Assembly: GCA_036172245.1 (NCBI GenBank)
Contig: JAYWIR010000003.1
Coordinates: 7,378,001 to 7,418,691 of the forward strand
Direction: 5' to 3'
DNA length: 40,691 nucleotides
From: Raillietiella orientalis
Taxonomy: Eukaryota
The translations under genes were made by a program, and so were the position numbers. How positions within the stretch are numbered: position 1 is the first letter of the stretch; each line of letters starts with the position of its first letter. The notes beneath the pieces are model-generated. The model was not told the origin of the DNA. It saw only the letters and a program-made list of their open reading frames with translations, and did no database searches. Below, piece by piece: positions 5,774 to 40,691 of the stretch.

Positions 5774-6971
5774 GGCGCCTCCATGGCAACCTGTTGCGTG
5801 GCGTACTGGAACTCCGAATATTGGTCAAGCTGACCAGGATGATGATCTGAATCTCCACCCAGGCCCTCAACGGTGGTACCTGGCTACAGGAAACCGTTCG
5901 CACATGGGTCCTGAACAATGAAGGCTGCGCGGAGTTGCAACTGCGACTGATGCACTTTTATTTCACTCGCTGTTTAACGTCATAGTGCAGCACAACTCGC
6001 GTTGGTGGACAGAAATGACGGACCGCCATAGCCACTGACCTGTCTTCCCCCAGGGAACAACTGGTCATTGGTCATACGTCCATATGGGAGGTTACTATTG
6101 AAATCTCGAGAAGAGAGAAGAAACTAGGTGGTCGGACCACGGTTCATCTTATGGATGCTGAGACTCGAAGTGTCCCACCGAAGTTTCTATTTCGTTGGGG
6201 CGAGCTGCTGAGAATCCCACAGGAAGACCCCGAGTGAACCCCCAGCGCTGAAGAAAGACTGGGTTCTTTCCCTAATTTAGCAGGAATCGGCTTTTCTGCT
6301 GTTGCATTGGGGTCTTCCCAGCAACGCCCGTTGTTCTCTGTGGACGAGGGGGGCTGTGGAGCCAAACTGCATCAGGTGCGGGGAACGGGAATCCCTCCCA
6401 CATCTGCTTATTGACTGTGTCACCCTCCGGCCCTTGTGGTTGCATTTCGCAACGCCCGTAGGTGAACCGGTGGACGCTCCCAGAGATATGTTCAGGCGCC
6501 TCTTTGTGCGCGATTTCCTCTCGCCTGCCGCAGACCTTGCAGCCCTTTGCCGCCATTGTGGGATTGTGGAGTCCTGGAGTCCAGGACTCCACAATCCCAC
6601 ATTTGCGTGAGAGAAGGACGGCGCGATACAAACGCGATCTTCTTCGCCTTGCTCTTCCTGAGGACGGCAGCCAGATAGCCCCATCTGGGACATACGCAGA
6701 TGGAACTTGCCGGCATCCTGCAAAGGACGTGGAGGACGGCCTCCAGCGCAATGTGATTCTTTCCCTGACATCCCTGTTCTTTTTTTGTAAATAGTGTTTC
6801 ATTTTAATTTTCTGTTTGTTTGTTCTTTCTCCCTCTGCTGCCGAGTTTAACCTCACCGGACTGCGTTTAGGATACTCGGCAGGTGCCGAACTCTTTCAGA
6901 CGCTCTAGGGCCGATGGCCCTACATATGTTTGTTATTTAAATGAACGCTTCGGCGCACCTGGGTGTTTAAC
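5774..6971 (+). mobile_element. Family-1 LINE remnant: ORF2 C-terminus with Cys/His zinc-binding motif, 3' UTR and terminal motif
   Basis: WLQETVRTW, WGELLRIP, LHWGLPSNAR..NCIRCGERESLPHLLIDC; ends aatgaacgcttcggcgcacctgggtgtttaac, a variant of the family terminal motif. Confidence 0.85.
6557..6601. repeat. Perfect 22-bp inverted repeat with 1-nt spacer
   Basis: tgtgggattgtggagtcctgga-g-tccaggactccacaatcccaca read directly. Confidence 0.95.
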
Positions 6972-14644: not shown

Positions 14645-17600
14645 GATACGTGTCCTACGTGGACACCGTATGCACATTGCACCAAACACAACGTAAACAA
14701 GGAAATCAGAAGCACGCATGAAAAACGGCGTATGCATCCACGCGAGGACACGGAAACTCCATCTCCAACTGAATCTTATGTTGGCCAGCACGATGGATGT
14801 GAGCCAATTGAGAGTCCAGCAAATGAATGACCCGAGTTCTAAGAAAAGTTATCGCACTGGCGTTCTGTTTGAAAGTGCAGGACTGAAGGTGGAAGACCTG
14901 AAGGACTGAAGCTCCACGAAAGGTGCAGACGCATCACGAAAGCAAGGCTACGAAAACTGCACGGAGGTGCAGCATCTGCGAAACCGACAGATGCCATTCG
15001 TGGAACTGATTCTCGTGAGAACTGCGTCCCGGAGTTTCAGCATGACAGAGAACTTTCCCATCGGAAACGCGCCGAAACAGAAACAGATAAGGACCAATCT
15101 CGTAGATACAACGACTTTCCATAAAAAGCAATCAGGAAGGGACCAGCATTCCACTCTCTCAATATAGTGCAGTTCACGCACGCCTTGCAGGCCCTATAGT
15201 GTGCACGTGAGTTCCCTTTCAACAAGATGGACATGCTTGTCCTTTTGCTTTTACAGTTGCACATGCTGCTTGCATTGGCCACTCCTCTCAACCAGGAATG
15301 GGCAAAGTTCAAGGTGAGTTCCGGATGCCAGTCGGAATCGCCGGGTCCCCGCGGCGAACCTCAGATTCCCTTCGGCTGGAGCTTAAATCGAGAAGAACTA
15401 GAAGGAAAGAAAGTTGGTGGCTGAATCAGATCTCGAGCCCTGGGGGGAGTGGCAGGGTTTTTACTTTTGCACGTTTCCCTTGCCATCAAGTTTAGGCGTT
15501 ACACGCGCATTCACGTCTCTCCCATGGCAACACTCCATCCGATGTGCATGCAGTTCCACCATTCCGAATTGCTTCAGCGTGCGAGCACAGTCCGTTCGCA
15601 TGCAACCAGCAGCTTTCTGACAGCTGGAAGCTACCGTGGCTCTGATGCCTCCGAGCATGTTCCGCTTTCATCCACATGGTGCACAAGTCCGAGCGTGAGA
15701 CGAAAGTTTCGCTACGTACGCTGTCACGCTGCTCCCGTACTTCGGCTCCCTAGGTCACAGCTGGTACCTCCTCGTCCGCTTCAAAGCAACCTCACGACCA
15801 GCCTTGCAGACTTCATGTCTCCCTCTTCGGCGAGTGCTTCCTCATGAACCACGCACCGTTGACCTGCAAATTTCTTACACTGCCTCCGTTCCCTTGCAGC
15901 ATGTGCACGGCAAGAAGTACGCGAGCACGGGAGAAGAGAGGCACCGCCTTTCCGTCTACCTGAAGAACAAGCGAATGGTGGAGGAACACAACGCAAAGTC
16001 CGAGAGAAATGAGACCAGCTTCAGGATGGCTCTGAACCGGTTCGCCGACACGGTGAGTGCCATCAACTGCATCCTCTCGCGAATGCCTTCTGGGCAAGTG
16101 TTGCGAGCTGCACTCTGGCCCGCCCGTTCTCTCGCCACGCACGGGAAGTGTTTGGGTGTTCGGGTGTTGGGCTCCATAGGAAATCACCGTTCTTCACTAT
16201 TTCCTAGCAACTGCCACTCCAGGAAAGTGCCTGTCCCAAGTGCCCTCCCTCAGAATTGTCCTCATGCTTCTAAGATGCAGATTCCTTTAGCGAGCAATGC
16301 TGTCAGCTTCACGGAAGAGTATCGGAAGCTCCTCCGAATTCGTTTGCACTTCTTTTCGTTCTCCAGGAAGCCTGGGAGTGGAACAGAGGACTGAACGAAT
16401 GGAATGGAACTCCTCCCTCTCTTCCCCGGGCCGCGATTCCTGTATCCTCTGATATATTTCCAAACACTTTTGATTGGAGAGATAAAAATTGCGTGGCTGC
16501 AGTGAAGGACCAAGGATTTTGCAGCTACGATTGGGCCTTCAGCGCGGTAACACTTCTGGACTCTTCAGAAGCAGCGTTATGCTCGAATGATGATACCTTA
16601 GGTTGCTGCCCTGGAAAGTGCTTCATGCGTGAGCAAACAGAAATTGGTAGTACTGAGCGAGCAAACATCATCGACTGTTGTTCAGTTTCCGACAACTGCT
16701 TGCAATCGGCGTTGTCCTTTTTCGCATTTCAGTGTGCAACCACATTGAAAGGAGTCGACACGGACGCGTATTATCCGTACAAAAATTACGTTGGTGCCTC
16801 GCGTATCCACACTGAGCAAGGTGGTAGAGTTCGCTATGATTTCAGAAATCACACTGCAATTTTTCTGTGGACCACATCGGAGTCTGGATTAACTCGTACC
16901 TGTATCTGACAGCAGGGAATGAATATCTGCTGCAACAATCTCTTTACACTAAAGGACCGATTTCTGTGTCTTTCGATGGCAGCCACGACTCCTTCAGGTT
17001 TTACTCTTCAGGTACGACTGCTTACGTGCGCATTCCTTGTGCTGTACGGTCTCTTCCACAATTCCTAGGAGTGTACTACGAGGATACTTGCGGCAAAGCA
17101 GGAGTACATAACGGCCTTCTTGTGGGGTACGGAGTGTCCGACAGAGGAGAAGACTACTGGACAGTGAGGAATTCCTGGGGCACACATTGGGGCGAAAAAG
17201 GCTACATCAGGATCGCCCGTGGAAGAAACAACCAATGTGGGATCGCCTCCCTGCCTGTGCTTCCTGTGATCCTTACCTGACGTGTGAAGTAAACGTGTTG
17301 ATCAAAAAGTTTCCACTTTTGTATCCGCATTGCTGTCTACCGTAGACAACACGAAGACACTTGTAACACCGCGTAATTACACGTTCTTCTTCAAAACGGA
17401 AAGCAGTATTCCCAGCCTATTGCGCAGGGAGGCTTCGAAGAGAAGTAAAGATGGCGTTTTCGGGGGAAATAGCCAAACTGCTGGTGCTCCGCCTCACGCA
17501 GTGTTGTCAGATTGCCTTGCGTTTGCGCCGCTCGTAATGGCGCTAATTTGAGGATCTTTTTGCATTTCGATTGGTGTCTTTCACGACCGCAAATGCTCCC

Positions 17601-21799: not shown

Positions 21800-24364
21800 C
21801 CACGATTAAATCATCACCGCTATTGAAAGGCTCAAGAGGCGTAAGGCGCCAGGGGAGGACGGCCTGCCGGCGGAGTTCTTTCAGTGCTTCGCTGCAGAGC
21901 TGACCCCTCTTGTGCTCCAATTTACACGGCTGATCCGAAACGAAGGCGATGTTCTCGCCTCGTTTCGGTCAGCCAGGGTGAGGCTCCTTCCTAAGGGAGG
22001 AGACCTCAGAAAATTAAGCAACTGGCGTTCGATCACGATTGTGAACACGGACGCCAAGTTGCCGGCTGGACTGTGGGCTGCGGGACTGGGGCAAGTAGCT
22101 GACATGAAGCGAACCTGTTCTTCGCCAGCACATGGTTCGATGTGCAACGCGAGGAAAAAAAGGAAAAAGAACGGAATGTCGACAAACCTGATTTGGGGGC
22201 GCCAGCGCGGCAAGTAAGGGACGACCGGGAAGGGAATGGGGCTCTAGCGATCGCAGTCGATCTGCACAAAGCGTTCGATTGCGTGGACCAGGAACTCCTT
22301 CTGGAGCTCCTGGATCGCATGGGCTTCCCGGACACCTTAACGGTCTACCTGCGCGCCTGCTGGCGCAATGCGATCATCAACTTGTTTTTCAGAGGACAGC
22401 ACGTGTTGGGCGTGCCGGTGAGGCGCGGCATCCGGCAGGGCGACAGCCTGAGTCCCCTACTCTTCAGCACCTATTTCGAACTGGTGCTGAGAGCATACAG
22501 GGTGACATTGGCTGCCCTGCCAAGCTCGTGTCCAGGCCGGTCGGCGTATGCTGACGATCTTTTGCTCCTGCTGCCCATGTCCGCCCCGGCTTCGGCAGTC
22601 GAAGATTTCTTCGACTTGCTGAGCCGTGGGACAGGACTACGGGTGAGCAGGACGAAGTCGTCGCTAGTGGCGGTTGGTGCAACGTGGGCAGGACGACCTG
22701 ATTGGATCCGCCTGGGGATCCCCACGGAGAGGTACTTGAAGTACCTCGGCGTTCCGTTGGGGGACTTCTGTCAGTCAGAAGCCTGGTCAGGTCGTCTCCA
22801 AAAAGTGGAGTCAGCGATCGGCCCGTTCCTGGAAGGCAAGCTTCACTTGCCGGAATGGCCCGCGGTGTGGAACGCGTTCGCGACCCCCCTCCTTCGACCA
22901 CTGCTTTTTGTTTGCCCCGTACCCCGTGAACTGAAAAAAAAAAAAAAGGACCTCCTACGCATCGCCCTGTGGGGCGGCAGAAGGCCTCGTGTGCCTTTAA
23001 AGGATTTGAGCGCTCCACGTCGGGACGGAGGTCTGAGCGTCCTGACGATGGAGAGAATGGAAACAGCTGCGGTGGCGTACTCTAGCCATCGCAGCGAAAA
23101 TGTGGAGCACCCATTGGTGCGTTCCGGCCCGCCTTCTCGCCAGACGTGTGTCCGGGACTGAAGGACTCGCGTCTTTTCTTCTGTGCCCCGGCCGGAAAAT
23201 AAGAAGATGCGGACTTCTCTTGGGACGCATGGCCACCCTGGCAAAGGAGAACGGGTGAATGGCCTGCAGCCCCGCCAACTCCAGCGCATGGCTGGAAGAA
23301 ACACTTGGAACGTGGGCAAAGTTGAAAGACATCAGTGGAGAATCCTGCAACCGGCTGCGCACCGGCATCTACACCCGCTGCATGCTGCGGAACATGATCG
23401 TGTGTCCCGTCAGAAGCACTTGGGCGGAGACGACCCCACTGGCCACGGCGCTGCCCTTCCTAAGAAGGGCGCTTCAAAACAGCCGGAAGCCGAGATAGCA
23501 AGTCTCCTGCAGGATAGCGGGCAAGGAGAAGGATCTAAGCGGGTGGATCATGAGGGAACTGCCAGACGCCGCAACCCCAAGCGTTCACCCGCATGGAATA
23601 CGGAGATGGGGCGAGCTGCTTGGCATCCCGGTGGATGACCTAGAGTGGCCCCCGTTGTTCATAGACTCATCCACAGTCCCCCTCAAGTGGCAGGAAACGG
23701 CGCTGTTGTTGTTGCACTTTGGTCTTCCCTGCAACGCGCGCCGCCACCACTGGACGTTGGGGAACGTGGGACAGAACTGTGCAGTGTGCGGAGAGAAGGA
23801 ATCCCTCCCCCATCTGTTAGTGGACTGCGCTGCCCTCCGGCCCTTGTGGGAACGTTTTGCTACGACCCTCCCTATGCCGGTAGGCAGTACCCCCAGAGAC
23901 GTTGTGAGACTCCTCTTCGTGCGAGACGCCCTGCCACCAGCCTCAACCCTGGCAGCGCTTTGCTACCTCCGAGGGATTGTGGCCGCGTGCAGCGCAGCCA
24001 AAAGAGGAAGCAGGGATAGGGACGCCATCGTACACGCGGGTCGCTACCTGCGAATCGCGATCGGCTGGTCCCATCTGGGAGCTATGACGAGGGACCTCGA
24101 GGGCATCCTGGAAAGGATGGTCTCTTCCTCCAGCGGGTTGTGATCCCTTCCCGGCCCCCCAAATAGTTTCTTTTTGTTATTTCATTTATTTTTCTTTTTT
24201 GTTTTCCCCCCTACCCCTTCCCCCTTCCGCTGCCGAGGAGAGTCAAGCCGGTTTGCGAACCGGCTTCCTGGCAGGTCACAGGAACTATTGGCCGTAGCGG
24301 GGCCTAGTACCGCAGATGTACTGTGTTCTTTTTAATAAACGCCCCGGCGTGACCGGGTGAAAAC
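21800..24364 (+). mobile_element. Family-1 LINE copy A, 5'-truncated, inserted antisense into copy B
   Basis: KAPGEDGLPAEF, DLHKAFDCV, GIRQGDSLSPLLF, YADD (22547-22558), LKYLGV, NCAVCGEKESLPHLLVDC; terminus aataaacgccccggcgtgaccgggtgaaaac; flanked by a target-site duplication. Confidence 0.93.
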
Positions 24365-25197
24365 TTCCCCGTATCCAATGGTGGCGGCGTGCATTGCAGG
24401 GGAGTCCCCAATGCAACAGCATCAGCGCCGAATCCTGCCATTTTAGGGGAAGGATCCTTGTTTGGGTTATCACTGGGGGCCACTTCAGGTCTTCCGTCCT
24501 GATGGCGAGCAGCTCGCCCCAGTTTTTCAATCCTTGCGGAAGGACGCTCTGGGTTGTGGCGTCTGCCAGCTGTCCCATTGTCCAACCGCTCAACAATTTT
24601 TCTCTGCCTGCGATACGGCAAGAGACTTGCCACCTCGGCGTCCGGCTGCTGACGAGGGCCCTACGTAGGAAGGGTAGCCCCGTCGCCAGGCAGGTCGTCT
24701 CTGCCCACGTGCTCCTGGCTGGACACTCCAGGATCTCGCGTAGAATGCAGCGGGCGTATCTGCCGCGTCGCAGGCTATTCCACCTCTCGTGGCTCCTCTG
24801 ATTAACTACCGCCCATGTGCCAACTGTTTCTTCCAGCCATGCGCTGGAGTTGACGGGGCTGCAGATCATCAGCGCATTCTCCTTCGCCAGGGTGGCTATT
24901 CGTACGAGGAGAAGGCCGCATCTTCTTATCTTCTTTCCACGACATAAAAGAAGAGATGCAACTCCTTCGGTTTTGGATGCAGGTCTGGCGAGGAGGCGGG
25001 CAGGAACACACCAGGGGGTGCTCCACAACTTCGCTGCGATAAGCAAGGATCGCCATCGCAGCTGAATTTCCATGCGCTCTAACGTCAGGAGGCCTAGACC
25101 ACCATCACGACGCGGAGCGCACAAGTCCATCGAAGGGACTAAAAGTCCGTCAGAGGCAATCTAGGCCTCCTCTTGCCCCAAAGGGCGATGCGGAGTC
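24365..25197 (-). mobile_element. Family-1 LINE copy B, upstream portion (post-RT region)
   Basis: LRIALWGKRRPR, DLCAPRRDGGLGLLTLERME ... LLHWGLPCNARRHHWIRGS; resumes at 21799. Confidence 0.9.
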
Positions 25198-27561
25198 CGA
25201 TCACCTTGGTGAATGCGGACGTCAAGTTGTTCTCCAGGCTCTGGGTCGCGCGCCTAGGCAGGATCGCTGGATCCGTGGTAAGTCCGGAGCAGTCTTACGC
25301 TGTTCCCGGGCGGTCCATGGAGGCGAACCTGTTCTTCGCGCGCACGTGGCTCGAGCTGCAACGTTGCGTGGCGCACGACAGCCAGGTAACCTCATCTGCG
25401 GCTGCCGAGGCTAGGCGTCGCTGCATTCGGCCTGAGGAAGCGCCGGGTGCCTTGGCGGTCGCGGTTGATCTCCGCAAGGCGTTTGACTGCGTGAATCAGG
25501 ATATCCTCCTGGAGCTTCTGGAACGCCTCGGTCTCCCGGTGCACCTCGTGGCGTATTTGCGCGCTTGCTGGCGCCACGCGCTCATTTCCATCTCTTTTAG
25601 CGGCTGCCACGTGCACGGCGTGCCGGTGCGGTGGGGCATCAGACAGGGCGACAGCTTAAGCCCGTTGCTCTTCAGCATCTTCTTTGAGTTGGTGCTGAGG
25701 GCGTACAGGCTAACGCTGGCCAGCCTGCCGAGCTCCTATTCAGGAACGCCGTCCGTGGCGGCCTATGCTGACGAACTGCTTCTCCTTTCACCCATGACCA
25801 CCCCGGCGTCCAGTCTCGAGGATTTCTTCGAGCTGATTCGCCGAGGAGCGGGCATGAGCGTAAACCGGAACAAGAGCGTGGTCGTTCCTATTGGTGCGGC
25901 GTGGGAGGGACAGTCCGACTGGATCCGCCTGGGGATCCCGACCGCTTCGTCCATGCAATATCTGGGCGTTCCGCTGGGGAACATCAGCCCAGTGGAAGTG
26001 TGGTCGGACTGCCTTCGGAAGGCTACGAATGCTCTGAGCCCGTTCCAGCATTGCAGGTTCCTCCTGTCGGAGCGGGCCGCGATATGGAACACCTTCGTTG
26101 GCCCCCTCTTGCGCCCCCTGCTTTTTGTTTGCCCGCCCCCCTACTAGGCCAAGCTCCAGGCGCACAGCCTGTTGAGGAACGCTCTGTGGGGACCTGCGAG
26201 GTGCAGGATACGCCTCAAAGACTTGGCGGCTCCGCGTCGGGATGCTGGCTTAGGCATCCTGACGCTGGAGAGAATCGAGCTGCAGGTGCAGCTTCGGATG
26301 TTGGCCCTGTGCGCCAACCTTTGGTCCACTCCGTGGTGTGCTCCCGCGCGCCTGCTTTTGCGGCGCTGCACCGGCAGCGATGGACTTCTGTCGCTGCGGC
26401 CGCATAAGGAGCGCGCCACGAGAAGCTTCGGTTTCCCGTTGAAACCCCTCTACCAGCTCCTGGAAGCCCAGGAATGGATCTCCTGCCGCCCAACGAACTT
26501 TGAGGCCTGGCGGCAGGAACCGTTGCATGGCTGGGCAAAGCACCATGATGTTTCCCTCCTGGAACTCCGTTGCACTCACCTCTCCCCGTACTGCACGGTG
26601 GATGAGGTGTGCAACAGCCAGGAGAAGTGGCCTCGCCTGGCCGTCACGCTCCTCGCTGACGCGCTGTCAGCCCTGAGGGCAAGAGATGACAGCTGCGAAC
26701 CGGCGAGATGGGAGGTCGCCGGCACCATCGCAGGAACAACACGACCCATTGGCGGCTGGAGGACTTGCGAGCTGGCAGACGCCGCCACCCCTCGCCACAT
26801 CCCGAAGGGACTCCTTCGATGGAGTGAACACTTGAGTGTGCCCCCCGAAGAACTTGTGGTCCCTCCCTCCTGTTTGAACACTTCTGTGTTCCCCCTTTCG
26901 TGGAAGCAGGACGTCATCATGCTGGTGCATTGGGGTTTTCACTCCAACCAGCGGACGAACCGTGTTTCCGGGGGAGTTGTCTCCCCAAACTGTAAGCGGT
27001 GCAGGGAAGTGGAAACGCTCCCGCACTTGCTCCTGGACTGCGGTGTCCTCCAAGGACTGTGGCAGTCTGGCCACAGCTCTCCAGCACCAGGAGGACACCG
27101 CAAGAGACTTGATGCGCCGCTTCTTCACGCCAGGCGGCCTGTCTTTAGGTGCTGTCGTTGCAACCGTGTATTGCACCCGGGCCATCGGCAAGGCCCACCG
27201 AGAGTTGGAGAAGCTGGCCATTCTTCGTCAGCCCACCGGAATAGTCAGCGCGAACATGACGTCGGCTGCCGAGTGGACCCATCTTCCAGAGGGCGTTAGG
27301 AGCGAGATCTGCGGCATCCATATCCGGTTCTAAAAGAATGGCACGGCCGCACCAAAGACCCCTGTCCTCTACCCTCCCCATATCTTTATTTTTATTTTTT
27401 ATATGTATATTTGTGCTCCCCTCCCTCTCGTTCCTGACTTTCGGTATACCGACTTGCGTGTCGGGGATCCCACCCCCTTCGTCTTCTCTGTATCCTTTGT
27501 CCGGGAACTCTGTTCCCGGATAGTTTTTCAATAAACGCCCCGGCGCACCCGGGTGATAAAC
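25196..27561 (+). mobile_element. Family-1 LINE copy C, 5'-truncated RT to 3' terminus, with stop and frameshift
   Basis: PITLVNADVKL, DLRKAFDCV, GIRQGDSLSPLLF, YADE (mutated YADD), MQYLGV, NCKRCREVETLPHLLLDC; terminus aataaacgccccggcgcacccgggtgataaac. Confidence 0.93.
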
Positions 27562-28563: not shown

Positions 28564-28652
28564 CAGGAGCTTGCGCGAACGCAGGCTTCCAACCTAAAAA
28601 TTATGCTCCCGAGTAATCTGCATTTGGGGTTATCGCAGAGATGCAATGGATA
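28564..28652 (-). ncRNA. U1: U1 snRNA 3' fragment (SL2 loop, SL3, Sm site, SL4); 5' end absent
   Basis: Minus strand reads tatccattgca-tctctgcgataaccccaaatgcagattactcgggagcat-aatttttag-gttggaagcctgcgttcgcgcaagctcctg. This matches recalled metazoan U1 landmarks: UCCAUUGCA, UGCGA..CCCCAAAUG, Sm site, GCG-UUCG-CGC. About 20 nt of SL2 are deleted. Confidence 0.85.
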
Positions 28653-30200
28653 GTGGAGTCTCAATGGATGGTGCGATGAACCGAAGAGAAGACCCGGAGC
28701 AAGGCAGCCTTGCTGCTGGCTCCTTCCCCCCCCTTTTTACAGAGCTACTCCGTTCGCTGCGTATCTTCAAGTGACGCAAATTCTCCGACTTTGGAAAAGT
28801 GGCAGCAACGAGCAGGAGGGTTCGTCGGGATTCACTCCGTTCGAAAGTCCAAAGAATCCCGTAAACTCCTGAAATGGATGGCGACGATCCGCTTGCCCGG
28901 CGAATTCCGATTTCGTTCATTTCGACTCTTTTCGCCCTCCCTCCGCGGTTTGGTAACCCTGCGTCGGCCTAGGGATCTCGGCATGCTCGGGCATCCACTT
29001 CCCTCTGCTGAGCGCTTCCTAATTGCGTGCACCTTGTAGTGATTCGTGTCAAACATCTCCACTTCCGACCCTCTGGACCGCTTCGGTTTGGAATGGGCAG
29101 TGTGGATGAGGGCGCCGCGAAGCAATCTGTTTTGTACGGCTCATCGCGTTCCGTGTACTGTTTTCACTTATACCTCGAATGCCCAACGTTTCGCTAAGTT
29201 CTCATCACTTCACCGGGCTAGCTTACCAGCAAGCATGAAAAGGTAAATATTAAAGAAAAAAGAAACAAACGAGAAAAGGGGGGTGGGGGAATGCAGTGCA
29301 CGTTGAGGATTATGTCCTTTTCTCCTCTCAGAGTACATTCTGAAGTATCGGTTTAGGGGACAATCCAACTCTTGTCGAATTTCGCTGTTTCGGTAGTTTG
29401 AAAGAAGAAGGATGGATTTCTTTTTTTGGCCATGAAAAGTATCCGTAATAGTATGTAAGGAAATTCCATGCATGAAAAATTTACATTGCCTCGTGTATTC
29501 CTTGTATTTTCAACTGTTCATGGAAAGATGGTAGTATGAACGATATCCCGCCCCCCATCAGCACCGAGAATTCATGAATTCTCGGTAGTGATGGGGAGCC
29601 GAGCAGAGTTGGCCAAAATGTTTAGTACCAAAAAACAAAAGCAAAAACATGGCTTTCTGTGTTCCATGCTTTTGAATGTATTTAAAACAAAGGAATGGAA
29701 CATTCCAATCGTCATAGTGGATCTGTGAATTGAGTTAGATGCAATCTCTGCATGCACCCTTGGGATTTTCAAGTCTTTCTGTTCAATTGCCAGAAAATTC
29801 CATTCACATGAGGGTTGTGGGAATCACATTCGAGTGTGCTTCCCCATGATGTGGCATTCTTCAATCAACTGACACAAATTGACAGTACTGTATGATCTGT
29901 TGTCAAACTTGCCCTTTTGTTGTGAATGTGAATTTACAGCACTGTGCATTTGTGTAGATTGCTGCAAGACTTTTCAAAGCACACAATCCCTTCAGAGTGT
30001 CTTTCCTGAATTGTTTTTCAGAAGCTTGCCTACAAAAAAAAGGGGGGGGGGGGAATGTCCACAGTAGGTTTTGGAAAGACTAGTGGCTTCACATCGTCCC
30101 AGGTTTCATTGATTGGAATGCTTAGTATCTTCCTAAAACTTGTGTCATTGGCCCTTTTTTTTTTTGTTTTTTCAAATGGTTCTGTTCCTGTACAGGGAGA

Positions 30201-30918
30201 TCATGTGTTCACTGAATGAATGTGGAGTGTTGTGTACAGCATGTTTTGTTGCCTAATGAACAATGATGCACAAATGGAAGCATTGCCTTTCAAGCTAAGA
30301 AATATGTGCTGAGTTAGGATCTGTGCATGAAGTGATAATGGAGGCAAATGTCTCCAGTGAAAGTGTCCAACTATATAATTGCATACATGTATCATCCAGA
30401 TTAGAACATTATTCAAGATTGTTGCTGTCAAAGATTAATTTGCAACAAGTATGGGAATTGTCAGAGGTATCCAACCTTCTCTGAACAAAGTGGGAAGCAC
30501 TTCTGCATAGGGGAGCAATGTTCCTCCATGACTCAGTACAGCAGTCCAGTCATCTTCAGTGACATATAACCAGGGGTTATTCAATCCCTCATTGCATAGA
30601 AAATGGATCATTTGCAACTGGAACCTGTTCTGAGCTTCTGCTTTGCCTAGTCCCCGATATCTTGTATTGGGAGCAATAGCGTTCAAAATACACGCTATAT
30701 TTGTCATATCAGATCTGTCAGGATCAGAAGTGTATATGCACTCTCCCCTTGCTGCTGTGAACAAATATGGGTAGGTTAGCAGATGTCCTGTTTCCATTCA
30801 CAGGTCCTAATTTAAGGTTAATGCCTATGATATGATCAAGGGTTGACGGTTTGGCAAATTGGATAGTAAGTTGGTCTATATTGTCATTTGGATTCCTCCA
30901 AGTGCTATTGGTGTTCAT
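30201..30918 (-). pseudogene. Endogenous viral element: putative N-terminal half of a chuvirus-like nucleoprotein (internal stop and frameshift)
   Basis: ORFs 30435-30797 and 30201-30431 are in the same frame across one stop. ILVAN*SLTATILNNVLIWMIHVC aligns with NMLANDALTPAIMNNIILWAIHRC at the start of the N fragment at 32520. Boundaries are approximate. Confidence 0.6.
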
Positions 30919-31739
30919 GGCTGATACTTCAGGTACTGGCAACAGATGATGATGGTCTACCTCGGTTTGGTTTACGAGTATGCTCTGTGACGTTCCGATT
31001 ACTTCTTCTAGGTGCAGGTGCAGGACCTTTCTTACTCTTACGTTTAGATTCAGTAGCCAGGTATGCAGACTTGGTGCACCCAAGAAACAGAAATATTCTG
31101 TTTCGAATGTCTATTTACTATATGATTGTACCTAAACAAGTTGACTCACATAAAATTCACGATCTTTCTTTTTGTCGCAGAATAGATTGACAATTCTTTC
31201 ACCTAATTTACTAATAGAGAAACACCATACTTTGTAGCCTCTGACTATACAATTGTGTGTTACAGATGTACGTTTTAGATTATTTGCATCTTTTTACAGT
31301 AGAAACTGATTGGCCCAACATTTCATGGAAACTGTTCCGTGCTCAAAAAATATCGGCAAATTAATTGATTGTGTAATTGCCCTATGTAGGCCGTTTCAAC
31401 TTGTCAGTGGATTTGCCTTTTATGTGTGATATGTGTAACTGTTGATAAACTGATGAAACTGCAAAGAATCCTCTTGACTGTTTTTTTTTTCCCTTTGGAA
31501 TGCCAGAATGATCTTTGGAACGCATGGAGTCATTTATTATTTTCTCCCCAAATTGTGGGGTTTGTTTCATTTGTAGCAAAGGAAGGCCATGTTTTAACAC
31601 CAACATGGTTTTCAGATAAAAACAGTCTGCTTATCGATGCCCTGCCCCGAATCATTTTACTGATTGGAGAAGAGATATCCGCAACAACACCGTTTAGTTG
31701 TTTTTTTTCATTTTGATATAGCTAGGTAGCTATATTGTG

Positions 31740-32520
31740 TGTCTATTAGCAACCAGGCATAACTCAGTCAGTGCGCGAACTGCATTAATTGCTAATTCAG
31801 GCAGGCTCTCTACATTCGAGGATGCTGTTTCATAATGAGTGATCATGTCATCCAGAATTCTTCGATGTCTAGGGTTATTAGTTCATCCTTGGTATTCCCC
31901 CATGGTCGCATAACTGGATCCTCCGTACAGTTTGAGCATACCTTTTGCTACGTACGCTACATTCTTACACAGTGTGGATTTTACATTACCTAAATCCTTG
32001 GAAAACCCATAATATGGGTTGTAGTTGCCCACCGTCAATGTCTGGTTAATGCAACTGCACTCGTCGACAAACATTGTCGCTATGGCCGTCCAGTTAAAAT
32101 TGCAAAATCCAACATAACCTTACGAATTACCAGTAAGACTGTAAGCCCAGAACCCACTGTAGGAGACAAAGTGACCCCGATCCTTAACGATAGATTGCGC
32201 ATATCATGGCACCACGTGGTAAAGATAATCTCTGCGTTCGTTTCATCAGTGAGATTTCCAAGGTGTGCAAACAGCTTTCGAACATAATTTGGAGATAGAG
32301 AAGGGTTAGCGAATTCCTCGTCAATATGTTCTGGTTGATCTTGTCGGTCTTGTTGACAGTAATTTGCCCACGTTTAGCGAAAGAAACGTGAATATACAAT
32401 TGTCTGAATATACAATATGTTGCCAACTTGAGTTAACATCAGGGTTTTACATCTGTGGATGGCCCACAGTATGATATTGTTCATGATGGCTGGCGTTAGT
32501 GCGTCATTTGCCAGCATGTT
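31740..32520 (-). pseudogene. Endogenous viral element: chuvirus (Jingchuvirales)-like nucleoprotein, C-terminal portion, degenerate
   Basis: Hand translation across one frameshift and two stops: LSLRIGVTLSPTVGSGLTVLLVIRKVMLDF/FNWTAIATMF..VGNYNPYYGFSKDLGNVKSTLCKNVAYVAKGML..YQG*. This resembles the recalled chuvirus N block GSGLT..F.W..NPYYGF..DLG..KST.YK.LAYVAKELL..Y.GW. Confidence 0.78.
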
Positions 32521-32960
32521 GGGGTTGCCGGTTTGCGAAGCAGATGATGGGGGGGGGGGGGGGGGGTTGAAAATACTTCAAGCTTCCCCGATATTTTGAG
32601 TCAAATATAATACCATTTTTCAGACTCTCAATGAAGCCGTACTGTACGTGCTCCATGTTATCTTTTGTGAAGTCTACGACTATAATGTGTTCTCCATTAT
32701 AAAGATGGGCTGCATCGGCTTTGCGGCAGGAATGCATGTAAATAGCTCCACGTTTGAGGAATAAAAATTTCGCCATTGTAGTCTTGCCGGTATTGCCACG
32801 TGTCGTAGCACCAGTGGATTTTTCTTGTACTTGGTTTGCAGCTTGATGTCGACTATACTCATCTGCCATTGTTTGAGTTGTAGGTTGTCGATATGGTTTG
32901 GAATGGCTCTGTTTCTTGAAAGGCGGAAGCATTCCTTGATAAAATTAATATTGGAAGGAT
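32521..32960 (-). pseudogene. rep: Endogenous CRESS-DNA virus Rep fragment (SF3 helicase domain)
   Basis: Across frameshifts: LKQWQ, IHWCYD, Walker A GNTGKT, Walker B IIVVDF, FIESLKNGIIFDSKY, motif C IICFAN. This layout is typical of nanovirus/alphasatellite-like CRESS Reps. No HUH endonuclease part is seen. Confidence 0.88.
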
Positions 32961-32967
32961 ATTATCT

Positions 32968-35686
32968 TCGGGGTGTGAGCTTTTGGCCGTGGATGTCTAA
33001 GCCCCGTAGTCGCCCGCTCTTCTCCATGAAAGACAGCGCCTCCATGTAAATAACGAACAGCATCGGACTTAGCGAGTCGCCCTGCCGAACTCCTCATTCC
33101 ATCCGAATGGCTGCCGTTTCTACCCCGTTGATCTTGATCCGGAAGCGTTGATTTCCGGAGAATGATTTCTACGAAGTTGCTGAAGTATTCCGGAAGTCCC
33201 AGCTTTTCCAGAATCTTCAGCAGCATCCCGTGATCTATGGTGTCGAAGACCTTCTCCATGTCGGTGAACGCCAGCACCAGGTTCCCACCGATGTGTCGGC
33301 TGAGTCTCACTGTGGCTTGGGCCCACTTGACATTGTCCGACTTGTCGCGTCCAGGCAGCGCACAAGTCTGGACTGGAGAGATTAGCTTCGGCATGATTTT
33401 GCCTAAGCGGTTGGCCCAAGTCTTTGCCAACCACTTGGCGTCGGAGTTGAGGATTGAGATCGGCCTCGCAAACTTCCATCTGTTCGCCATCTGGCGCGCC
33501 ATCCTGCTCCGCGGCCTTCTAGGAAAATTTCTGCTCGAACGACTCTTCGGATCTTAATGGTCTTCAGAATCGCCTCCAGGACATCCTGATGACAGGGATG
33601 GTTCTCGAACCAGGTGGGCATGCTGATGAGCGCCGCCCTGGTGCCTTGTCTTCGTCGAGGATTTTCCGTCCTTAGGGAAAACCGCAACAACGGGTGATCG
33701 GACAACGCAGTGAGCGTGTCCGGAAAGCCTTGTATGCGGTTCTCTAGTTCGGAATCGATGTGTTCGCTGATCGGGCGACCCAGCTTGTGGGTCACCTGCA
33801 GGCACACGATGTCTTGATGTGCGATGGTTCGCACAATCCTTCTTTTGACCTGGTCGATCAGACCATTTACATTCCAGGAGGCGATGTTAATCCTGTTGGC
33901 GGTCGATGGGGTTGAGGCCATAAAGGGGAAGACCTACTCTTGGCCTTCCTGAGCTTCTTCTGTCTGGGAGAGCGTGGTGCTCTTCCAGACGAAGAAGAGG
34001 GAGCGGTTTTCTCGCTGCCAGCGTCGCTCTCCGTCCCGGTGAGGTCGGTGAGGTCGGTGAGGTCGGCCTCCTCGGTGTAGTGTTCAGTTCGTGCGACGAG
34101 CTTCCGGGGTAACACTCTATCTCCACGTTTGCGCAGAAGTTTGCCTTCACGTCGAGAAGCTTATCCTCCAGCATCTCTCGCTCGGCAGTCTCCACCACCT
34201 GGTTGATGGTTTCTTGCGCATTGCAGATCTTCTGCAGGAGTTCCTGCTGAGGTCCGCTCTGCGCCTCCATGAGTTCTTCCGCCAGTTTCTCCACCTCCTC
34301 GGTGTTCTTCAGGGCAACCTGTGGCACCGGGGTGGGTTCTGACACTTTCACTTCTCCTTCCTCCGCTACCTCAATCCTCTCGCCTTCCTCCGCGCCTACT
34401 GCTTGGGCAAGTGCAGTTTCCTGCTCCTTAACGAGCATCTTCCTCTTCCCCTTCTCCCCTATCTCCACAAAACCGTCCGCCGAAAGCGGGGCGGCCTCCT
34501 TGGCCTTTGTCTGTTTACCTGATTTTGAGGTTTCGCAACCTCCGTCAAAACCTTCTCCCTCCCGGTGGATTGACCCCGCATAGTCCGGTAGTTTGCCAAC
34601 TCCGGACAGCACCACCTCGCGTGCCCTGGCTGCTTGCAGAACGAGCACACCTCGAGCATGACAGCCGCGCACCTGGAGTCCTTACTTCCCACAGCGAAAG
34701 CACTTAGACCTGGGACACGCGCTCATTCTGTGACTGCAATTTTTGCAACCGGTGCAGAACACCGGCTGCTGCCTATAATATACGGAGACCTGCGTGTAAC
34801 CGTCTATATGTACGATCCTCGTGATCTGTGCTCCCTCGCTCAACTTCAACTTGGCGTTCACCTCGTCCGAAAAGATCTTCCCTGTTATGTTCTGGAATTG
34901 CAAGTCCAGAACCTCCCCGAACTTGGACAAATAGTCCCAAACCGTCATTTGCGTGGTGGTCATCCCCATGCCTCTCAACAGAACGCTTGTGTACGGCATT
35001 TCGCCGATCCTACCAACCATTCGCCCCTGTATATTAATGCTCGTCTCGATGAGGGCCTCACGTAGTGGTTCACTATCCGAGTAGATGATGAACCCCGGCG
35101 TAGTCGGGATGATCGCCTTAATGCTATCGAAGTCTACATTTGTCTTGTAGAGAGACAGTTAGACCTCTCTGACGTTATGTAACCGGATTAAGCCATTCTT
35201 CAAGGTGACGGACTTTATGTTCGGACCAACCCGAACGATCGGCTCGTCCACCCTGGCCAGCTTCCCCCTTTCCGGTTTCCCGAAACTTCTTTGCGGCTGG
35301 GCACTAGCCTGGCCCGCTGCCACCGCCGCATACGAAAAAGGCTTTGCAGCCGAACAAGATCACATTTCATCCTGCACCCTATGCGCAGCGTGGACGCCCG
35401 CAGGTCCCGCCTGGGACGTCGCCGCTGCAGGCACGATCCTCGACGTTGCCGCCGTCGCGGGCGCGAACCTAGGCATCGCCGCTGCCTCGCCATCGCCAAA
35501 CGTTACCTCCATTTCCATATGGGACGTCGGCCTCTTCGTCACACCTGTTGCCTGCATCCCCGCGGCTGCCACTGCCGCTAAGGAAGTTGGCAGGGCTTCC
35601 ACCGTGGATTCCTCGCCGCTGATGCTGCAGGTGTAGTGGATGATCCTCGCCTGCTCCATGAGTCCACACTCAATTTTTTACTAATT
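32968..35686 (-). mobile_element. Family-2 L1/Tx1-like unit I: ORF1 (ATG 35659; RRM-like region, CCHC knuckles) and internally deleted ORF2 (APE endonuclease start at 33921; RT cut before YADD)
   Basis: FCTGCKNCSH, KCFRCGK, CSFCKQPGH; IASWNVNGL..DIVCLQVTH, LSDH; RPISILNSDAKWLAK, DMEKVFDTIDH, VRQGDSLSPMLF. Confidence 0.92.
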
Positions 35687-35806
35687 TACCCTCTCGGGGC
35701 ACTCAAAAATTGCCGCGGCAGTGAGGTTAGTCACTGCCTTGGCGGGGTATTGAGTATAGTTTTCAACTAGCAATAATCGCGCCTCCCTTTCGTTCAGCGG
35801 CGGCAG
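35687..35806 (-). ncRNA. U4: U4 snRNA fragment (about nt 20 to 3' end), junction copy 1
   Basis: gccgctga..gaggcgcgattattgctagttgaaaactatactcaataccccgcc matches the recalled U4 5' stem-loop/K-turn and U4/U6 stem I region. It is followed by a central hairpin ggcagtga/tcactgcc, Sm site aatttttg and 3' hairpin tgccc-cgaga-gggta. Confidence 0.92.
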
Positions 35807-38800
35807 TTTTCCTCAAGTACCACAAGGGGTGGGGCAATTTATTGCACATGCAGGAAATCGAAACTTTGATTACGCACTTTTAAGTTCATTCCACTATCAC
35901 TTGGGGAGTCACTCAGGGAACTCTACGTTGGATTTGCACTTGGGAAGACTAAGTATGGGTTTGGGCTCGGGCAATACTTACTATCCTGCGAAGGATGTGT
36001 TTGTACGTCCATGCTTACACTTTCCCGCAGTTCCTGATTCCAATTTCCTTCTGGACGAGTCCTCGGAGGATGTCCATGGGATGTGCTGCCGTTCCGGTTT
36101 TCGCCATCTTCCACCATCGGATTAGGATGGCTTTAATGAACAAGGCAATGGTTATCCTAGCCATCGGATTATACAAGGGTGCACTGGCGTTCCCCTGAAA
36201 CATCAGCGCTAGTACTTCCGTGGTGGTGACGTCGGGTAGTCCTAAGAACCTTTTCAGGGTATCCCAGTACCGGGGGTATGTGGGACAGGTTAGGATGTGC
36301 AGTCTTGTTTTCCCATCTCCACACGCCTTGCATTTCCCGTATTCCACGTTTCCCGTTATGTGGTAGAACCTGGAACCACTCTGGATTCCGCCCTGATAAC
36401 ACATCAGGACTTAGTCCTGAACGTTCGGCGGTAGGTCACTCCTCCATAATGTTGTGCCAATCGCTAACAGATTGATCCTCAGACTTCCGTGGCGATCGGC
36501 AGCTTCATGGAGAGCACTGATGTCCTGTTTGTCTTCTTGAATGATTCTGCGGATGTTTTTCCTATCTAACCTGGATAACGCGAAGTTGTCGTTTTTCCAC
36601 ACCTCGCGGGTCCTGTGGGTGAATTTTTTCAGCATCATCTCGATATACCGAAGTATACGAGAATGGTGAAGGTTTCCTCCTCTTCTCCATTCCTGGATTT
36701 TCTTCAGGGTAACTCTGGGTTGCTGGTGGATCCAGCTCATTGCGTCAGCAGGCACGCGAAGCCTTCTAGGGATCACCAGGATGGATTCCTCCTGCCAGAG
36801 TTCCCTGCTTCGTGGCACAATCTTCAGCTGGTGCTTCTGTACCACCGGCTGTTTCCTCTTCCAGGTGGGATCGATAGTGTTCCAATCTCCTGCTTCGCCT
36901 AGCAGCGCAGTTATCAGGCCTCTCGAGCTGTTCAGCAACAACGCGTAGGCCCTGTGCGCTACATACGTCCAGTAATTCCAGTGAGTGGCTATGTCCAGGA
37001 TGTGTCGCGTATCCATTATTCCTATGGAGAGTGCAGGAGACTTTATCCCGGAACCGCCTTTTTCCCTGGGACGACACAGGGGTTTCAAACCAACTCCAGT
37101 AATTCCAGTGAGTGGCCCCACAGTGTTTTTCGCTGCAGATTCTCTACTTCTCTAGTGGTTTCCGTGTTCATCCTAGCGAAGGCTGCCACGATGAGTACCT
37201 TTGAAAGGAGTACTCCGTTCCATAGGTTGGCTCTCGAGATATTTCAAGAAACCTTGTTAAGTCGAGCGACAGAGATGTGTCCCTTAAAGTGTTTCCTGTA
37301 CAGCTTCTGTAAGGCTTAGACGATATCTTCAAACGAGTGTCTCTTCTGGCCGTTGTACTGATTGCACATGTCTGTTGCCCAATTCCTCTTCTCCAGTACT
37401 CCGACTTCCCTTTTACATTATGGAAAACGTACGGTCTCTCGTACTCCTCGAAGCACTTGGAGAGTGAGCGATCTTGCATGTTCCGCTCCCGGAACGCACC
37501 TTGCCTCAATCGTCTATCGCCAAACTGCATGTTCGCAAACAGTAATATCCTGTGTTTCCAGACGATGAAGAAGGAGCGGGTTTTTCGCTTACAGGGTCAC
37601 TCTCCGTCCCGGTGAGGTAGGTAAATTCGGCATCCTCATTAGAGTGTTCTGCTCGCGCGATGACCTTTATGGGTAGCGACTCTATCGCCACCTTCGCACA
37701 GAAGTTCGCCTTTACTTCGAGAAGCTGTTCCTCCAGCTTTTCTCGCTCGGCTACCCCCACCATCTGGTTCACAGTCTCCTGAGCATCGCAGATCTTCTGC
37801 AGGATTTGCTCCTGCTGGGGCCCACTTTGCACCTGCACGAGTTATTCTGATAGTTTTGCCAACTCTTCGGTGGATTGTCGGGCAGCCTACGATAACGGAG
37901 TGGCTTCTTTTTCCACTTTCGCGTCTTCCTGAACTCACTCCATTTTCTCGCCTTCCGCCGCTACTTCTAGACTTGGAGAGGCTTCCTGCACCTTGACGAG
38001 CATCCTCCTCTTCCCCTTCTTTCCGACTTCTATGAAGCAGTCCGCCGATACCGCGACAACTTCCTTAGTCTTTCTCGGCCTTCCTGCTGTCTTTTGAGGC
38101 TGTTCCGCCTCCTTTAAATTCCTCTCTCTCACGGGAGAGAGTCCACGAATCCTTCTGCAATTAGAAATTCCGGACAGCTCCATTTAGCATGCCCGTGCTT
38201 CTTGCAGAAGGAACAAACCTCCGGCTACGCGCAGTTTCGGACTTCGTGTCCAATCTTGCCGCAGCAGTAGCATGTTGATGTGGAGCAAGCGCAGGCCTTG
38301 GGGCCAAACTGCTTGCATCCGCTGCAAAATACCGGTTGCTGCCGGTAACGCACACTCACGCAGTGGGATCGTTCGTCTATGACGGCTATCCCGGGGATCA
38401 GCGCGGCATCATTAAGTTTTATTCTGGCGATCATGTCGCCAGAAAAGATTTTTTCAGAGAAGTTCTCGAACTCGAGGTCAAGAATTTCTCCAAACTGTTC
38501 AATGTATTTCTAAACCGTTAGTTATGGTGTGTAGATGGAAATACCGCGCATATAGACGGTCGCGTACGGCATCTCGCCGACACCACAGACCATCCTGCCT
38601 TGGATGTTGATCCCTTTCTCGATCAACCTTTCCCTGATGTTTTCACAGTCTGTGAAGACTGCAAACCCGGAATTGTTTGGAATGATCGCCTGAATGCGAC
38701 CAAAGTCCAAATCCGTCTTATCTAGGGACAGACATACTTCCCTGATGTTGCTGACCTTGATCAGCCCTGTTCGAAACATTCTGAACTTGACCTCCGCGCC

Positions 38801-39369
38801 AAGCTGGACAACATGCCGGTCCACCCTTTCTACCGTGCCCCTTAGGGGCTTCCCAAATTTTCGTGGCGGCTGGACACTAACCTGTCCCGCGGTCACCGAC
38901 GCGTAAAAAAATGGCTGTGTTCACGCAGCCGAGCAAGATGCCGTCGCATCTTGCGCTGCCTTCACCGCGTGGACGTCCGCGGGCCCCGCCTGGTACGCCG
39001 CCGCGGACGCAACACTCGACGTTGCCGTAGCCGCCACCGCGGTCGCGATCCTCGGCGTCGCCGCCACGGGCACGACCTCCACCGTGGCCGCTGCGGGCCT
39101 GACCCTTGGCATCGCCTCCACCGGCGCAGCAAAGCCCGCCACGGGCGCGATCCTCGGCGTCGCCGCCGCCGCCACCTCGCCGTTGCCATACGTTACCTCC
39201 ATGGTTTCCATGGGAAACGACGGCCTCACGTCTCCTGGTGCCTGCATCCTGGCAGCTGGTCTTGATGCTCGGGACGACTGCAGGTCTTCCACCGCGGACT
39301 CCTCGGCTCTCCTGGTGCTGTAGATGGTCCTCGGTTGCACTATTTCCACACTGGTCTTCCTGAAACACT
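35807..39369 (-). mobile_element. Family-2 unit II: degenerate ORF1 joined near 37555 to the post-RT part of ORF2 (endonuclease and RT core deleted), plus 3' UTR
   Basis: ORF1 knuckles FCSGCKQFG, CYCCGKIGH, CSFCKKHGH; LCRPREKGGSG; C-terminal CKACGDGKTRLHILTC; ends aataaattgccccaccccttgtggtacttgaggaaaac. Confidence 0.9.
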
Positions 39370-39489
39370 TGCCCTCTGGGGGCACTCAAACATTGCCGCG
39401 GCAGTGAGGTTAGTCACTGCCTTGGCGGAGTATTGGTTATAGTTTTCAACTAGCAATAATCGCGCCTCCCTTAAGTTCAGCGGCGGCGA
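39370..39489 (-). ncRNA. U4: U4 snRNA fragment (about nt 20 to 3' end), junction copy 2
   Basis: tcgccgccgctgaacttaagggaggcgcgattattgctagttgaaaactataaccaatactccgcc...ggcaatgtttgagtgcccccagagggca. Same structure as copy 1, with 10 differences in 120 nt by hand count, one of them in the Sm site. Confidence 0.92.
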
Positions 39490-40691
39490 TTTTCCCCAAG
39501 TCCCACAAGGGGTGGGGTAAATATATTTCACAGTTTTTGAAACACATTCATACTACAGTCTCATTCATACCACTGACACTTGATTACCGCTTTGAAGTAT
39601 CTGGGGTTTCTCAAGTTCTGCATTCCGGATGGGTTGCCGGATGTTTGGTCCCGGGCGTCGTCTTGAATCCTCTACAGGATGAACCGGTACGTCCGGGCAT
39701 GCATTCTTCCACAATTCCTGATGCCTATCTGCTTCTTGATGAGTCCTTGAAGGATCTCCATCGGAGGTGCGCCTCTTCTGCCTTATCTCATCTTAGACCA
39801 GCGCACAAGTATTGCGGTGATGAATAGGGCAATGGTCGTCCTAACCATTGGATTGTAACGGAGAACATTACCATCTCCCTGAAACATTCCGAAGATGATC
39901 TCCATTGTGGAGCTGGTGGTGAGTCCAATGATCCTATTCAGGATCAGCCAGACGTGTATCAATTTGGGACACTTAAAGACGTCAAGTCTGGTGTCGGTGT
40001 CGTCACATGCTACGCAGTCTTCATCTTCCCGTCTTCCGGTAAAGTACTGGAGTCTGGACCCGCTTTGGATTTCTCCATGATAAAACATCAGGAGGTTGTC
40101 CTGGGTCTTCGGCGGAAGGTCACTCCTCCAGAGCGTGGCGCCAATCGCTAGCAGGTTGATGCGATCGCTCCCGCAGCGTTCGGCAGCTTCTTGGAGGGCA
40201 CTGATGTCTTGGTCGTCTTCTCGAATGAGTCTTCTGAGGTTAATTTTGGTTACCCTAGACCACGCGAGATTGTTGTGGTTGATCCACACCTCACGGGTCA
40301 TATGGGTGTACCTTCCTAACATCATCTCTATATACGGAAGTATACGAGTATGATGCAGGTAACCTCCTCTTATCCACTCCTACATTCGTTCCACGATAAC
40401 TCCGGGCCGCCGGTAGATCCAGCTTCTCCTGTCCAAAGCGACCAGAAGCATCCAGGGGATCACCAGGATCGATTCCTCCTGCCAGAGTTCCCTGCTTCCC
40501 GGCACGATCTTGATTTTGTGCTTCCGCACCAGCCGTTGCTTCCTCCTCCAGGTTGGGTCCATGGACATCCAATCTCCTGCTCGGCCTAGCAGCGCAGTCA
40601 TAAGGCCTATCGTGTTGTTTCACAACAACGCGTAGGCCCTGTGTGCTGCGTACGGCCAGTCATCCCAGCGGGTGGCTATGTCCAGGATGTG
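39490..40691 (-). mobile_element. Family-2 unit III: ORF2 C-terminal part and 3' UTR; runs off the window
   Basis: Homologous to 36015-37010 (RINLLAIGATLWRSDLPP, CVACDDTDTRLDVFKCP); ends tttaccccaccccttgtgggacttggggaaaa directly against U4. Confidence 0.92.

Follow-up and report, generated by a model that had tools for sequence, protein, structure and literature searches.

A non-coding fossil mosaic of U4 snRNA, LINE, CRESS-virus Rep and chuvirus nucleoprotein sequences in the Raillietiella orientalis genome

Chimeric retrocopies made by long interspersed nuclear elements (LINEs) consist of copies of different transcripts fused directly and in the same orientation; read 5' to 3', they begin with a small nuclear RNA (snRNA) and finish in an A-tail. 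Two reports describe U6/L1 chimeras, other bipartite forms, and tripartite forms in Magnaporthe and in mammals (PMC2104539; PMC11838501). Template switching is held responsible for the directly fused, co-oriented LINE chimeras, tripartite ones included (PMC2104539), and RNA ligation is the other route proposed for U6/L1 (PMC11838501). In mosquito PIWI-interacting RNA (piRNA) clusters, non-retroviral endogenous viral elements (EVEs) from several virus families lie among retroelement fragments that run in one direction; 543 of 614 nearest long terminal repeat (LTR) elements are on the EVE's strand (10.1101/127498). Copy choice was proposed there as the route to co-oriented hybrids of transposable elements (TEs) and viruses, and for mosquitoes mixed-family EVE clusters with co-oriented retroelement fragments, explained in this way, are established (10.1101/127498). 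Here we describe a locus in a stretch of 40,691 nucleotides (nt) of the Raillietiella orientalis genome (contig JAYWIR010000003.1, positions 7,378,001 to 7,418,691; hereafter the window). The locus is a non-coding fossil mosaic of a U4 snRNA copy, a LINE, a piece of a replication protein (Rep) gene from a circular Rep-encoding single-stranded (CRESS) DNA virus, and a piece of a chuvirus nucleoprotein (N) gene (Table 1).

As it stands, the locus is a well-documented case of the known EVE/TE mosaics and does not represent a system of a new kind. Particular to it are the non-LTR partner, the direct joint between a DNA-virus and an RNA-virus sequence, and the snRNA-headed LINE array. Direct fusion of co-oriented copies of different transcripts is present, at the joint between Rep and N and, with at most 58 nt without assignment, between LINE and Rep. 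In the described chimeric retrocopies, the LINE is the 5'-truncated 3' partner and the fungal tripartite element carries 14-bp repeats (PMC2104539; PMC11838501). Here, in contrast, the LINE is the 5' partner and has kept its 5' end, its 3' partners are transcripts of viruses, a target-site duplication was not found, and the snRNA is not U6 but U4, with a U1-like sequence close to a neighbouring LINE. The mosquito hybrids involve LTR elements (Ty3/gypsy and Pao-Bel; 10.1101/127498), whereas the element here is a non-LTR LINE. Mosquito chuvirus EVEs derive mostly from the glycoprotein, and this one from the nucleoprotein; mosquito EVEs lie in piRNA clusters, and the present locus belongs to a non-mosquito host.

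The two viral pieces also have counterparts when taken singly. Fossils of N genes from negative-strand RNA viruses, such as the endogenous bornavirus-like nucleoprotein (EBLN) elements and the chuvirus N EVEs of ticks and beetles, carry hallmarks of an mRNA origin; surveys of tick EVEs reportedly exist. The N piece of the mosaic (N1) resembles these fossils in being a 5'-truncated copy of an N mRNA with a stop codon, a short 3' untranslated region (UTR) and an A-run, and differs from them in that its upstream partner is a piece of a DNA-virus gene instead of host DNA; no target-site duplication is seen around it. Endogenous CRESS- or circovirus-like Rep elements are said to occur in animal genomes. 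With these the Rep piece shares its nature as a Rep-derived pseudogene in an animal genome, but it comprises only the linker and helicase, without the HUH endonuclease domain, and its nearest relatives are not Circoviridae proper.

All parts of the mosaic lie on the minus strand, and all positions given are those of the whole window. Read 5' to 3' on that strand, the order is the U4 copy, the LINE from its 5' end to just before motif C of the reverse transcriptase (RT), Rep, and the 3' end of N. The LINE, Rep and N parts have the same orientation, and every one is a pseudogene. No single reading frame runs across the three, and there is no continuous open reading frame (ORF) anywhere in the mosaic. 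It does nothing as protein now, and could at most be a putative source of small RNA, if the array is transcribed. The GC content drops from 0.55–0.56 at 33001–35000 to 0.38–0.43 at 29001–33000.

Table 1. Positions of the mosaic parts and of related features in the window. APE, apurinic/apyrimidinic endonuclease; SF3, superfamily 3.
Feature	Positions	Strand	Extent or evidence
U4 snRNA copy, 5' head of LINE unit I	35688..35826	minus	Rfam RF00015, 67.3 bits, model 1-138 of 138
LINE unit I: 5'UTR, ORF1, APE-like region, RT; cut before RT motif C (YADD)	32965..35687	minus	Pfam RVT_1; similarity to unit II
Unit I ORF1	35158-33890	minus	one in-frame stop; 48-58% identical to unit II ORF1
Unit I APE-like region	33933-33406	minus	Exo_endo_phos only E 0.09
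Unit I RT	33553-32965	minus	RVT_1 profile 9-138 of 205; one frame change
LINE-Rep joint zone	32916..32974	minus	LINE homology to ~32974; Rep homology supported from 32916 (sequence; hmmsearch, single frames)
CRESS-DNA-virus Rep fragment, linker and SF3 helicase	32520..32955	minus	Rep profile about 100/113-254 of 270
Rep Walker A	32797-32777	minus	alignment to CRESS Reps
Rep Walker B	32686-32672	minus	alignment to CRESS Reps
Rep motif C	32548-31	minus	alignment to CRESS Reps
C18 run inside Rep	32549..32566	minus	Tandem Repeats Finder; read as Pro6, relatives have PP or P
N1, chuvirus (mivirus-like) nucleoprotein fragment	31733..32523	minus	N profile about 155-401, C-terminal ~60%, natural end kept
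N1 stop codon (31732-31730), 21-nt 3'UTR, A8 run (31708-31701)	31701..31732	minus	sequence
N2, second chuvirus-like N fragment	30387..30918	minus	start codon 30918-16; N profile 7-175
U4 snRNA head of LINE unit II	39371..39512	minus	Rfam RF00015, 76.1 bits, model 1-138 of 138
U1 snRNA-like sequence	28564..28711	minus	Rfam RF00003, 35.9 bits (below gathering score of 69.5), E 1.2e-5 over whole window, model 1-166 of 166

The original prediction, made from the letters alone, had called the two viral pieces a CRESS-virus Rep and a chuvirus-like N, and profile searches over the region agree with both identities. For Rep we used a profile of 8 natural CRESS-virus Reps from 2.0–2.4 kb IMG/VR contigs. 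Against the 146-residue ORF at 32944–32507, hhalign gave a probability of 97.7 and an E-value of 2.3e-12, and over the six-frame translation of the window the profile had a sole credible match (hmmsearch independent E-value, iE, 7.9e-11; profile positions 154–255 of 270; nt 32803–32513). Collinear hmmsearch matches lie in two upstream frames (profile 113–139 at 32916–32842 and 142–154 at 32837–32799), so that the fragment is spread over three frames, which change near 32840 and again near 32800. The SF3 helicase motifs Walker A, Walker B and motif C are present in order and aligned with the matching positions of the 8 CRESS Reps. The protein Atlas placed the Rep ORF in top clusters of Cressdnaviricota (score 0.95, 215 of 256 features), and Pfam RNA_helicase matched it at E 0.0065, with 17.4 bits falling below the cut-off of 21.5. 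The fragment lacks HUH motifs I and II and the last ~15 residues; Rep profile positions 1–112 were unmatched anywhere in the window, and Pfam Viral_Rep had no match on the upstream ORFs. The piece represents only part of a Rep gene and does not qualify as a Rep.

The Rep relatives were reached with a degenerate 20-base Walker A pattern run on IMG/VR, which led to one locus (L115) and from it to 9 related loci on 2.0–4.1 kb contigs. The pattern matched 121 loci, nearly all of them phage noise and just one of them a relative (L115, E 7e-9), which was left out of the profile. All 7 scanned Reps of the profile match Pfam Viral_Rep, and 6 of the 7 reach its curated cut-off. The closest relatives found are uncultivated 2.0–2.4 kb IMG/VR genomes, at about 30–36% identity. 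Searches by other routes returned no relatives: phmmer on PDB sequences returned just two PR-10 matches, both irrelevant (E 0.3), word-indexed searches gave none among 79 and 3 candidates, a protein-pattern scan of IMG/VR gave none among 12 matching stretches, and a longer degenerate Walker A pattern had no match in IMG/VR. AlphaFold2 on the single Rep sequence produced a model with a predicted local distance difference test score (pLDDT) of 46, too poor for a fold search.

For N1, the query was the 129-residue frame at 32119–31733, with one stop read as X, searched with HMMER against 1.84 billion representatives. This gave 182 matches at E≤1e-3 (14 at E≤1e-10), mostly at the C-termini of proteins of 400–560 residues. 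Named cluster members are the nucleoproteins of Amblyomma dissimile mivirus, Wufeng shrew chuvirus 6 and Wuhan tick virus 2, and a genomic protein of a beetle (Carabus) is also among the matches. N1 is 38% identical to residues 289–401 of the Amblyomma dissimile mivirus N (BLASTP, E 1e-22), and hhalign gave E 1.2e-12. A 27-sequence N profile matched in three frames, at 32107–31763 (E 1.2e-34), 32307–32104 (E 5.7e-13) and 32396–32319 (E 5.9e-5), covering 32396–31763 overall, and similarity to a second N fragment, N2, carries N1 up to 32523. N1 has been damaged by three frame changes and one in-frame TGA. Pfam has no family for these proteins (none of 14 homologues had a relevant match), no N relatives were found in IMG/VR, and the protein Atlas was uninformative on a 97-residue N piece (score 0.87, recognition 1597). 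Mononegaviral mRNAs finish in a short UTR and an A-tract signal, and from its sequence the end of N1, with its stop codon, short 3' UTR and A8, has the appearance of a viral mRNA 3' end. The A-run may derive from a longer tail that has shrunk, or may be the A-tract of the virus.

N2 is co-oriented with N1, lies about 800 nt downstream of it, and contains one frame change and one stop. It matched the N profile with iE 4.5e-5 and 2.8e-7 and, by blastp, P0005 at E 1.2e-11 and the Wufeng shrew chuvirus 6 N at E 8e-8. The ~22 residues in which N1 and N2 overlap are only about 42% identical (about 58% in DNA, z about 2.6), and N2 is therefore a separate viral lineage rather than a permuted half of N1. 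A circularly permuted arrangement, in which residues 1–175 of N2 and 155–401 of N1 would form one gene of a circular chuvirus segment, was considered and is ruled out by the same identities. A complete open N frame is absent: both fragments are interrupted, and each covers just its own part of the profile.

The joint between Rep and N can be placed within 32524–32517 (to within about 4 nt) and has no filler. Rep profile homology reaches 32522, and the resemblance of N1 to N2 begins at 32523. The joint between LINE and Rep is less sharp. Unit I, as the LINE of the mosaic is called here, has its final LINE-like residues near 32974, a few codons before motif C, and 20–58 nt (32974–32916) have no statistical assignment to either part. 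This zone is AT-rich and resembles, by its sequence, the motif III region of Rep. The locus had been predicted to be a seamless chimera joined end to end in coding sense; its order, its co-orientation and the filler-free Rep-N joint stand, whereas 20–58 nt at the LINE-Rep joint are unassigned, the Rep and N frames are one base apart, and the parts are pseudogenes.

The prediction that the RT stops just before its YADD motif agrees with the Pfam matches and with motif spacing. RVT_1 matched the ORF at 33553–32948 with E 1.3e-10 (profile 9–107 of 205) and, past the frame change, 33093–32965 with E 0.011 (profile 118–138), and in the other LINEs of the window YADD or YADE follows the shared QGDSLSP motif by ~30–40 residues. 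The DNA of unit I is 67–77% identical to that at 37556–39532. No 3' remainder of this LINE family was found downstream within the window by tblastn or blastn.

Both U4 copies span the full Rfam model and score above its gathering score of 46 bits; one forms the very 5' end of LINE unit I and the other that of unit II. The 3' UTR of the preceding LINE abuts each head within about 10–20 nt and without an A-tail (before the unit II head, this is the 3' UTR of a LINE designated unit 0). Since this leaves no room for a promoter, the U4 copies are not functional genes. The two heads are identical at 127 of 139 positions (91%), without gaps, and their flanks at 38 of 61 (62%) and 79 of 120 (66%). From these sequence identities, the contrast is better explained by a conserved host RNA captured repeatedly, or by a constrained head, than by one inherited fusion. 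The U1-like sequence precedes ORF1 of a third, related LINE (28120–27851; 44% identical by tblastn) by 444 nt and could be a second kind of snRNA head. Together the heads suggest that 5' capture of snRNAs is frequent in this LINE lineage. Unit II itself (36020–39532, minus strand) has ORF1 and the C-terminus of ORF2 and is without the endonuclease and most of the RT; this gap arose either by internal deletion or by a template jump within one molecule.

We favour, at about an even chance of being correct, the reading that the LINE, Rep and N parts came together at the RNA level, in the course of a single LINE-mediated reverse transcription. Primed at the poly(A) end of an N mRNA, the RT would have copied as far back as about codon 155, moved onto a Rep transcript for ~150 codons, and then entered LINE RNA inside the RT region and run to its 5' end. 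Templates ligated or spliced as RNA before copying would yield the identical product. We favour this reading because of the polarity of the parts, the filler-free Rep-N joint, the snRNA heads on neighbouring LINEs and the absence of a LINE 3' remainder. Precedents for it are the bipartite and tripartite LINE chimeras (PMC2104539; PMC11838501) and the copy-choice route proposed for mosquito EVEs (10.1101/127498). N, the 3'-most part, keeps an mRNA end and an A-run; Rep is internal; and the LINE, the 5'-most part, has its 5' end and is without its 3' end. This polarity, with the co-orientation of the three parts, fits an RT crossing successive templates from 3' to 5'. A LINE with a 5' end and no 3' end cannot be obtained by ordinary target-primed LINE insertion, so unit I is either the last template of a chimeric cDNA or has had its 3' half deleted.

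Several observations weigh against joining at the RNA level. Besides the unassigned nucleotides between LINE and Rep, the A-run is just 8 nt long. Inspection by eye showed no clean direct repeat shared by the sequence that follows the A-run and the sequences upstream of 35836, 32970 or 32524, only loose A-rich similarities, although decay could mask a short duplication. The dense heap of LINE and viral fragments, including the independent N2 and the internally gapped unit II, indicates rearrangement or repeated insertion here. The Rep-N joint is explained equally by a plain 5'-truncated, A-tailed N retrocopy landing in an older Rep fossil. Finally, both joints lie outside the contigs of a single low-coverage public DNA run, apparently from the same species (bins 32272–32805 uncovered).

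The two mechanisms of the original prediction, serial template switching by a LINE RT and deletions that fused separate insertions, both remain live. The latter corresponds to stepwise assembly at the DNA level, which we consider a serious contender, if somewhat short of an even chance. An older Rep fossil would have lain beside or inside a full LINE, a 5'-truncated, A-tailed retrocopy of N mRNA would have inserted, and the 3' half of the LINE, the 5' half of Rep and what remained of Rep on the 3' side would have been lost through one or more deletions or end-joining repairs; co-orientation would have come from retrocopies entering earlier A-tails or from selection in a one-strand small-RNA cluster. 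The locus contains many truncated fragments of separate events, among them an N2 of a lineage other than that of N1 and a unit II without its APE and most of its RT; opposite-strand LINE fragments adjoin elsewhere in the window; and A-runs (A10 at 31490–31481 and A6CA11 at 30172–30155) break up the low-GC block into segments resembling stacked retrocopies. The Rep-N joint is of the kind that a 5'-truncated retrocopy ordinarily makes, the A-run is short, and a target-site duplication was not found. Clusters of EVEs from several viral families among one-directional TE fragments are moreover well described (10.1101/127498). Yet at least one deletion must by chance have left all three pieces in one orientation and with the polarity expected of one cDNA, no recognisable Rep C-terminal remainder follows the A-run of N, no LINE remainder was found in the window, and the Rep-N joint has no filler.

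Capture at a double-strand break in the LINE, with a CRESS double-stranded DNA piece and an N cDNA end-joined and the LINE 3' half lost, we regard as very unlikely. A DNA fragment is a natural source for a sequence from a DNA virus, and seamless joints or overlaps of a few bases are compatible with end joining, but end joining is blind to orientation, so that both fragments would take the orientation of the LINE in 1 of 4 cases, and the LINE 3' half would be expected after the captured pieces, where it is not present. Least probable of these explanations, in our judgement, is an assembly artefact in which one or both joints are chimeric contig joins. The region is rich in repeats, a homopolymer of 18 C lies 25 nt from the Rep-N joint, and the only public run found yields no contig over either joint. 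The 151–181-nt contigs of that run, however, match exactly at 28771–28921, 29523–29703, 34536–34686 and 34825–34975 and with one difference at 31555–31705, and from this agreement at five places the assembly is locally faithful; the joints are not located at the homopolymer, and base composition and decay are coherent through the block.

A broader form of RNA-level joining would make the entire minus-strand array from 40691 to 31701 one cDNA of a single jump-prone LINE RT, which would have passed from chuvirus N mRNA to CRESS Rep transcript, LINE RNA, U4, LINE RNA, U4 and LINE RNA in turn. We think this improbable. If it were so, the LINE family would be one that habitually builds snRNA-headed head-to-tail arrays by template jumping, and one molecule would record the germ-line co-infection by both viruses. 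The U4-headed and U1-associated LINE copies in their head-to-tail array may be the more informative feature of the locus. If the three parts of the mosaic were joined in one event, the locus would be a natural record of a non-LTR RT recombining transcripts of a single-stranded DNA virus and a negative-strand RNA virus with its own RNA; the copy-choice route to EVEs, known for LTR elements, would extend to LINEs; and a germ-line cell would have been co-infected by a single-stranded DNA virus and a negative-strand RNA virus.

Elsewhere in the low-GC block, a C11T8 run at 30040–30058 (minus strand) splits the sequence together with the A10 and A6CA11 runs. Neither the ~770 nt that separate N1 from N2 (about 31700–30930) nor the segment 30387–29250 matched Pfam (28 ORFs), Rfam or tRNA models. 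At 29550–29599 there is a near-perfect palindrome of 50 nt, centred on GAATTCATGAATTC, whose loop is too small for a CRESS-type origin.

The window as a whole is a transposon graveyard. More LINE copies, of another family (RVT_1 and zf-RVT), lie at 22103–24140 and 25143–27296 on the plus strand and at 13615–12500 and 25195–24354 on the minus strand, and some of them abut in opposite orientation. A palindromic match to the MIR2084 model at 6531–6630, on both strands, scores 37 bits against a threshold of 100 and is probably a mere inverted repeat. Two cathepsin-L-like genes or pseudogenes (Inhibitor_I29 and Peptidase_C1), at 3592–4623 (minus strand) and 15699–17277 (plus strand), are 38–41% identical to their best database proteins, from a spider, a bivalve and other animals.

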